From a virus (Duplodnaviria > Heunggongvirae > Uroviricota > Caudoviricetes): DNA of 64,000 bases. This document shows, piece by piece, positions 3,604 through 3,771 of the stretch (its first letter is position 1; every line of letters starts with the position of its first letter). The notes under the pieces are model-generated. The model saw only the letters and a program-made list of their open reading frames with translations, was not told the origin of the DNA and made no database searches. Where the stretch lies: the IMG/VR virus record IMGVR_UViG_3300042535_000037, positions 100,031 through 164,030 of that record. The stretch is one strand, 5' to 3'. Position numbers and translations under genes: made by a program.

Positions 3604-3771
3604 GTAGCCAAGTGGTTTAATCTGGGAAAACGCCCTTTTAGAGACTTCAACATGTACTGCTTGCGGAGATGGTGTACAACGTCAATGCATGAAACATGGC
3701 GCGGGGAGAAATCCACCGCTTGAGAGTAACGAACTCATTGGGAGATTGCAGTTCGAATCTGCCAAGCTACC
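3604..3771 (+). ncRNA. tRNA-like RNA with a 104-nt structured insert in the anticodon arm
   Basis: GTAGC/GCTAC acceptor, D-arm GTTT/AAAC, CCC/GGG, T-arm GCAG-TTCGAAT-CTGC; the insert has its own helices and a GAAA tetraloop. Confidence 0.65.

Follow-up and report, generated by a model that had tools for sequence, protein, structure and literature searches.

Introduction

By analogy, the closest precedent for the viral RNA described here would be the archaeal t-element, for which the t-element literature reportedly cites Hoelzle et al. 2008. The t-elements are archaeal tRNA-like structures at which RNase P and tRNase Z cleave, thereby freeing the RNAs that they flank (PMC4326828). They are described upstream of 5S rRNA in Haloferax volcanii and in plant mitochondria (PMC4326828, PMC1920247). 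The RNA under study, designated E1, is encoded at positions 3604 to 3771 on the plus strand of a window of 64,000 nt, the whole stretch of DNA that was analyzed, which corresponds to bases 100,031 to 164,030 of a virus record that is 183,084 bp long and has direct terminal repeats. All positions are those of the window unless stated otherwise. Like the t-elements, E1 would be a non-decoding tRNA-shaped fold that sets the ends of a neighboring RNA in an archaeal setting, with E1 and a further tRNA-like module (E2) flanking a structured module (M) in the same manner. An acceptor-like stem stacked on a T-arm, directly beside another RNA (M, then E2), is a feature present in E1. In contrast to the t-elements, E1 is viral, carries a 104-nt domain of its own and has a cleavage that is putative only. 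Furthermore, E1 begins at the predicted transcription start and therefore no RNase P would be needed, unlike the t-elements.

Other systems share one or more features with E1. Archaeal intron-containing pre-tRNAs, comprising those with a bulge-helix-bulge (BHB) motif cleaved by EndA and the tRNA-Trp type with a box C/D intron, also carry approximately 100 nt of extra sequence at the position of the anticodon loop, whereas E1 contains neither a BHB nor box C/D and gives no convincing tRNA on excision, and strictness of the host-type endonuclease is expected (PMC4033280). The tRNA-like domain of tmRNA resembles E1 in the paired ends, the T-arm adjacent to the 3' strand, the reduced D region and the structured body that takes the place of the anticodon arm, although in E1 the pair 3-70 is A-U instead of G3.U70 and there is no tag reading frame. 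No tmRNA was called when E1 was searched with ARAGORN and Rfam, and archaea are not known to have a tmRNA/SmpB system.

In the engineered tRNA scaffold of Ponchon and Dardel (2007), a cargo RNA reportedly takes the place of the anticodon loop, with the tRNA body said to confer stability and defined ends. The original prediction had likened E1 to a natural version of this design. The likeness extends to the topology, with the ends paired next to the T-arm and the cargo at the anticodon loop, but not to the body, which in E1 is statistically weak and energetically unfavored; the body of the engineered scaffold is fully canonical, whereas that of E1 is degenerate and may not fold in this way. The vtRNAs/TMERs of MHV68, the MALAT1 mascRNA, the stable RNAs C and D of the phage T4 tRNA cluster and YrlA with Ro60 are further examples, non-aminoacylated tRNA-like RNAs of viruses or cells in which tRNA mimicry serves RNase P/Z processing and CCA addition, or protein tethering, rather than decoding. 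In the herpesvirus and MALAT1 RNAs the cargo adjoins the tRNA-like portion, whereas in E1 it is enclosed within it. A Ro60/Y RNA system was considered and rejected, since the virus has no match to a Ro60 (TROVE) gene at E≤1 and none to the YrlA Y RNA model at E≤10.

If real, E1 would represent a naturally occurring equivalent of this engineered design, carried by a virus of methanogen-type archaea, a group whose viruses are poorly known and whose viral non-coding RNAs are essentially unstudied. The tRNA-scaffold reading of E1 is plausible; E1 is not an established new class.

Results and Discussion

Host and promoters of the virus

The gene content of the virus suggests that the host is archaeal and probably Methanosarcina or a relative. 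A family-B DNA polymerase, an RFC-like clamp loader, a PTH2-type peptidyl-tRNA hydrolase (genome positions 10606 to 10947) and a 1,340-aa protein with disaggregatase repeats are encoded, and together with the promoters described below they point to an archaeal host of the Methanosarcina type. Methanosarcina acetivorans was the sole carrier of the disaggregatase family among 14 control genomes. A contig scan with the disaggregatase-like protein returned only a chance match in bacteria.

A single promoter type is present in approximately 60 copies on the plus strand, in which a BRE-like ..ttaAC is followed by TTTTTATAC and then by a conserved downstream block. Counted from the first T of the TATA box, the start codon is located at +30/+31 in 31 of the 50 promoter-linked ORFs. 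Such a distance is typical of archaeal mRNAs that lack a leader and have the TATA box centered near -26, and the viral mRNAs are therefore read as leaderless. The same promoter can be written ..ttaAC TTTTTATACATAAAcCACcATTA across its approximately 60 plus-strand copies genome-wide, of which those at 4060, 19682 and 39035 of the window are examples. Twelve promoter copies lack an ORF of 40 aa or more within +60, and these mark candidate non-coding RNA genes. They are located at window positions 3574, 6666, 18321, 23683, 39035, 44593, 46743 and 51266, with four more upstream of the window.

E1 is a viral RNA gene

E1 is a real and unusual viral RNA gene that is promoter-driven, GC-rich and structured, and it presents a consensus T-arm in tRNA register with its own 5' end. 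The archaeal-type promoter (3564 to 3596, plus strand) is composed of a BRE-like acccgttaac, the TATA box TTTTTATAC and the conserved downstream block. Since the consensus TATA box at 3574 puts G3604 at +31, G3604 is the predicted first transcribed base of a 168-nt non-coding RNA in which C3771 occupies the discriminator position. The GC content of E1 is 48% versus 36.6% for the virus genome and 35-37% for the flanks. The fold has a z-score of -2.1, with 4 of 200 shuffled sequences folding equally well.

E1 falls within a gap of 424 nt that is devoid of credible genes, and none of the promoter-linked ORFs extends into E1. Two small ORFs (23 aa from 3652 and 62 aa from 3689) were rejected as genes, neither having a promoter of its own, and the ATG at 3652 also lacks an upstream Shine-Dalgarno-like GGAGG. 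The next promoter, with the TATA box at 4060, serves a gene with an ATG at 4090. Given the E1 promoter at 3574 and this next promoter at 4060, the non-coding unit is taken to extend from 3604 to approximately 4060, a length of about 450 nt.

Resemblance of E1 to tRNA

The T-arm of E1 (3747 to 3763, plus strand) consists of a 4-bp stem, GCAG/CUGC, spanning 3748 to 3762 with the loop UUCGAAU, and an additional U.C layer. The 4-bp T-stem of the original prediction is therein confirmed, and the T-loop is perfect. Residues G53, U54, U55, C56, A58 and C61 are invariant in 10 T-arm hairpins of the viral genome and all are kept in E1, while the stems of the 10 hairpins differ by paired changes. In the alignment of these hairpins 92% of cells were paired, but the rows had been selected for pairing, which makes the value partly circular and inflates the alignment statistics. 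The T-arm motif, with a stem of 4 bp or more, is present at 11 sites on the plus strand and at none on the minus strand, with 1.3 expected from shuffled genomes, and 9 of the 11 sites are in gaps without a listed ORF.

The 5' strand of the terminal stem (GUAGC, 3604 to 3608, plus strand) pairs with GCUAC at 3766 to 3770 with a pair probability of 0.99-1.0. When counted from the T-loop, the 3' strand covers positions 61-73 and this 5-bp helix corresponds to pairs 1-72 to 5-68 in the canonical tRNA register, base 1 being the predicted transcription start, and from base frequencies, with a shift of ±1 base allowed, we estimate that the register would arise by chance in approximately 1% of cases. 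Together the acceptor and the T-arm form a minihelix of 12 layers, of which three consecutive layers are mismatched, namely 6-67 (C.A), 7-66 (A.A) and 49-65 (U.C). The dinucleotide AG follows base 7 in E1, and likewise in E2 and in the sibling element E3.

A possible D-arm is located at 3615 to 3631 (plus strand), with a GUUU/AAAC stem and the loop AAUCUGGGA. The loop, with its A14, GG and A21-like residues, fits the A14/G18-G19/A21 pattern, and ARAGORN drew this arm in deletion constructs. The D-stem is preceded by 4 nt instead of the standard 2 nt. Forcing the D-arm costs 5.7 kcal/mol, and the minimum free energy (MFE) fold places the stretch in a longer 5' hairpin at 3612 to 3648. The anticodon-type stem, CCC/GGG, has 3 positions paired, or 4 of 5 if C27-G43 is counted, and the 104-nt domain stands in the place of the anticodon loop.

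ARAGORN called no tRNA in E1, with or without intron mode, and the Rfam tRNA model RF00005 gave no match at 3604 to 3771 even at E≤10, local mode included. A deletion scan was also conducted in which every single stretch was removed from E1 and each of the 14,555 resulting constructs was run through ARAGORN. Only 3 constructs were called, the best being a Leu-UAG tRNA with a score of 103.2 on removal of 3645 to 3739. As a control, the T-arm was retained while the 5' part was shuffled, and 10 of 150 such sequences scored as well in the same scan. Two deletions brought E1 to 107.7, versus 110.7 for the genuine viral tRNA-Asn. Of the tRNA body that had been proposed, the T-arm and the pairing of the ends in register are upheld, but the detectors are silent, some of the shuffles score equally and the frame lies 12 kcal/mol above the MFE. 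Because the detectors, shuffles and energies are adverse, E1 is described as a credible acceptor/T minihelix, possibly with an elbow, and not as a demonstrable tRNA body. The likeness of E1 to tRNA is real but weak.

The insert domain

The insert of 104 nt (3636 to 3739, plus strand) is closed by CCC/GGG and likely contains three hairpins. Hairpin B spans 3651 to 3698 with a pair probability of 0.93-0.99, the GNRA hairpin spans 3701 to 3719 with 7 bp, one bulged A and a GAAA tetraloop (pair probability 0.95-0.99), and hairpin D spans 3724 to 3736 (pair probability 0.86-0.90), all on the plus strand. The original prediction had drawn the insert as a three-helix domain, and every motif named in that drawing is in place and able to pair as described: CCC (3633 to 3635) with GGG (3740 to 3742), GAG (3641 to 3643) with CTC (3734 to 3736), ACTTCAA (3644 to 3650) with TTGAGAGT (3720 to 3727, one bulge), TGTAC with GTACA, and the two strands of CATG-AAA-CATG.

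The helices as drawn have a pair probability of approximately 0, with two exceptions: the terminal stem, at 0.99, and the GNRA hairpin, which at 0.96 is the only robust insert helix of the drawing. The CCC/GGG helix forms unforced once the acceptor, T and D arms are imposed. When helix P1 of the drawing, GAG/CUC, CCC/GGG and the tRNA arms were kept and the interior was re-optimized, the energy was -37.9 kcal/mol, which is 1.4 kcal/mol worse than the arms-forced fold. In the re-optimized fold a single long hairpin at 3651 to 3698 replaces both TGTAC/GTACA and CATG/CATG, and P1 closes a three-way junction with this hairpin and the GNRA hairpin. The idea of a junction and the GNRA hairpin thus survive re-optimization, whereas the TGTAC/GTACA and CATG/CATG interior was probably misdrawn.

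No second copy of the insert is present in the viral genome and it is therefore not a repeated mobile element or MITE. A reading of the insert as antisense to a target was rejected, the matches being of 12 nt and at chance level only.

Module M and the proposed function of E1

Module M (3774 to 3887, plus strand) begins 3-4 nt 3' of the E1 discriminator C3771 and is built of a 10-bp closing stem round two T-loop hairpins, with the loops UUCGAAU and UUCGAUU. The first T-arm of module M is 70 nt downstream of that of E1 and differs from it by one compensatory pair (C-G to U-A); from this comparison of sequences it looks like a duplicate of the E1 T-arm. Module E2 (3921 to 4050, plus strand) is a second and weaker tRNA-like module that ends just before a T-run and the promoter of the next gene. 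It reached only 10.9 bits with the Rfam tRNA model and gave no call in the deletion test. A perfect 8-bp hairpin (GUGAGGAA/UUCCUCAC) is located at 3892 to 3918, after module M.

We tentatively propose, as a reading that has a good though not a better than even prospect of being correct, that E1 is a non-decoding, tRNA-derived handle with cargo that heads the non-coding unit of approximately 450 nt composed of E1, M and E2. In this proposal, the D-arm-like hairpin could supply the GG for an elbow, while the weak CCC/GGG stem would close the GC-rich, multi-hairpin domain of approximately 104 nt in the place of the anticodon loop. The minihelix and elbow would then be the handle recognized by tRNA end-processing enzymes. 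Cleavage by tRNase Z is expected after C3771, which would also generate the 5' end of module M three bases before the 10-bp stem, and CCA would subsequently be added by an enzyme of the host or by the class II enzyme of the virus. On this model, both the tRNase Z cut and the CCA extension of E1 are considered probable. The outcome would be a stable RNA with defined ends on which the insert is displayed as cargo, and protein binding or a decoy function may be guessed for the insert.

Folding energies and a competing hairpin

The MFE fold of E1 has an energy of -51.5 kcal/mol. The energy was -45.0 kcal/mol when the terminal stem and T-arm were forced and -39.3 kcal/mol when the D-arm was forced in addition, and a second cloverleaf register, with the acceptor at 3612 to 3618 and an 8-nt leader, was as good as the first at -39.3 kcal/mol. 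The outer frame of the drawing with the re-optimized interior gave the -37.9 kcal/mol reported above, compared with -29.9 kcal/mol for the drawing as given. The tRNA frame of E1 is 12.2 kcal/mol above the MFE, whereas the cloverleaf of tRNA-Asn is 2.4 kcal/mol above its own MFE. In the MFE fold, the T-loop is buried in a competing hairpin of 9 bp (UUGG-G-AGAUU/AAUCU-G-CCAA; 3738 to 3765, plus strand) with a pair probability of 0.72-1.0, and the T-arm is 6.5 kcal/mol costlier. The 9-bp hairpin itself is unlikely to be chance.

These energies bear on the possibility that E1 is a structured non-coding RNA without tRNA mimicry that adopts the MFE fold, in which a 5-bp clamp that starts at the first transcribed base closes five hairpins and the T-arm is a buried relic or T-loop module. 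This explanation is considered unlikely, although it is the most probable of the alternatives to the proposed handle. It is consistent with the depth of the MFE fold and the pair probabilities of its hairpins (0.72-1.0), with the additional 12 kcal/mol demanded by the tRNA frame, with the negative results of the tRNA detectors and with the finding that, in other non-coding RNAs of the virus, the first transcribed base is likewise held in an opening stem (GUACG...). However, it requires that the T-loop consensus and the canonical spacing between T-arm and terminal stem be a coincidence, for which the register alone was estimated above at approximately 1%. In addition, the T-arm of module M retains its T-stem by compensatory change and does not retain the alternative hairpin, and the MFE prediction also misfolds the genuine viral tRNA-Asn.

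Sibling elements

Several sibling elements carry extra sequence at one shared site, the anticodon loop. In the deletion test, E3 was clearly tRNA-shaped apart from the anticodon loop, with 0 of 100 shuffles scoring equally, E4 was moderately tRNA-shaped (4 of 100) and E5 was not tRNA-shaped (15 of 100). E3 is located at 6800 to 6897 and has perfect acceptor, D, anticodon-stem and T arms, with 31 nt replacing the 7-nt loop. E4 is located at 8714 to 8815, and removal of 8753 to 8780 leaves the loop CUUUAAC with the anticodon UUA and an ARAGORN score of 108.8. The anticodon of this excised form would read the UAA stop codon; the standard code gave the best gene map obtained for the virus. No BHB flanks the stretch from 8753 to 8780. 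E6 (genome positions 52975 to 53122; L004:12975-13122) is 148 nt in length and ends at the next promoter; its acceptor is a perfect helix of 7 bp and its T-arm has 5 bp.

A decaying and functionless tRNA gene, formerly a viral tRNA that was hit by an insertion and then eroded, would explain the degenerate acceptor and D regions of E1 and the marginal result of the best excision (Leu(UAG) at 103.2, or 107.7 with two deletions, versus 110.7 for tRNA-Asn). Nevertheless, the consensus promoter has remained intact and sets base 1 within the stem, the GC content is raised and the hairpins of the insert are well formed, and the T-loop is perfectly retained. Moreover, the siblings all have extra sequence at the anticodon loop, unlike the pattern of random decay, and the insert is not a repeated mobile element. 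We therefore regard decay as improbable.

E1 is not an ordinary intron-containing tRNA

The region from 3590 to 3830 was scanned for a BHB, defined as two 3-nt bulges on opposite strands with a 4-bp helix between them (PMC4033280). No BHB, either canonical or relaxed, was found at the borders of the insert, the scan returning weak and misplaced candidates only, and none was found in the sibling elements E3 to E7. At the CCC/GGG junction the bulged loops occur on the wrong strands, with a middle helix of 3 bp, and the alpha4 and alpha2 endonucleases of euryarchaea cleave only the canonical BHB (PMC4033280). No box C/D is present in 3604 to 3771, where neither box C (RUGAUGA, with one mismatch allowed) nor box D (CUGA) was found. 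Rfam gave no family match over 3300 to 4300 at E≤10, a search in which ribozymes, tmRNA, RNase P and Y RNA were included. Genes for EndA and RtcB are absent from the virus.

That E1 differs from an ordinary intron-bearing tRNA, as had been predicted, is in agreement with these results, there being no BHB, box C/D or Rfam family and no deletion that yields a convincing tRNA. The contrary scenario named in the original prediction, a spliced intron that leaves a normal tRNA, fails for the same reasons, and the intron reading was excluded on these grounds together with the lack of a viral splicing endonuclease. Consequently, very little probability is assigned to E1 being a true pre-tRNA from which an insert of 95-104 nt is removed by EndA of the host or an unknown viral activity and which the Rnl1-type ligase of the virus seals to give a decoding tRNA such as Leu-UAG. 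With 3645 to 3739 removed, the 7-nt loop reads UUUAGAG and includes U33, the construct being scored at 103.2 by ARAGORN, and the viral kinase/phosphatase/ligase could join ends with a 2',3'-cyclic phosphate and a 5'-OH. The product would still contain three acceptor mismatches and a 4-bp T-stem, however, and the score is inside the range of the shuffles.

Search for relatives

No relative was found among GenBank phages with blastn and megablast, or in IMG/VR with both flanking proteins and PolB as queries. The promoter consensus searched as a DNA pattern gave 0 matches in IMG/VR and 2 doubtful short matches in metagenomes, and the 212-aa neighbor protein matched only itself among 5.8 billion proteins. 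Relatives of the CCA-adding enzyme are at most 40% identical, and their contigs share 1-3 genes with the virus, are very different in GC content and contain no E1-like element. Since GenBank phages, IMG/VR, metagenome contigs and the collection of 5.8 billion proteins all failed to yield a relative, there is no covariation for any helix of E1. On present evidence, the virus is an orphan and E1 is a single sequence with an ambiguous fold.

It is hardly credible that E1 is no RNA gene at all but a chance likeness in a spacer or an attachment-site remnant with 3' tRNA fragments, since the clustering of several T-arm and 3'-strand fragments, as is possible at attachment sites in tRNA genes, stands against a consensus promoter directed into E1, elevated GC and folding signals, and a genome with direct terminal repeats and no encoded tyrosine integrase, the absence of an integrase being the reason for which the attachment-site remnant was rejected.

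The tRNA-related genes of the virus

In favor of the proposal that E1 is a tRNA-derived handle, the virus encodes several proteins directed at tRNA. A class II (bacterial-type) CCA-adding enzyme with an HD domain is encoded at 10926 to 12209 and a kinase/phosphatase/Rnl1-ligase fusion, the phosphatase being a metallophosphatase, at L005:10719-12890 (minus strand). The single canonical tRNA of the virus is Asn-GUU. In the distant relative L025, two tRNA-Asn(GUU) genes are located directly upstream of the CCA enzyme.

The sibling elements, the lone tRNA-Asn, the CCA enzyme, the ligase fusion and the PTH2-type hydrolase point to a heavy investment of the virus in the tRNA world of the host, an investment that could be put to use in RNA processing or in conflict with defenses that target tRNA. 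A broader and rather doubtful extension is that E1 to E6, at least six elements, are anticodon-less tRNA scaffolds in the tRNA maturation pathway, serviced by the viral CCA enzyme and ligase and with inserts directed at the host. If this were true, the inserts could be, for example, decoys or sponges for defense proteins that bind or cut tRNA, and the system would be one so far undescribed for archaeal viruses.

Two further genes were observed. An ORF of 274 aa is located between the tRNA-like clusters (7458 to 8282, minus strand) and has a sub-threshold match to the anthrax lethal factor-type metalloprotease domain PF07737, with E = 6e-6 and 26.5 bits versus a cut-off of 27.4. A 755-aa protein with a Hint/homing-endonuclease (intein-type) domain is encoded at L007:8420-10687 (minus strand).
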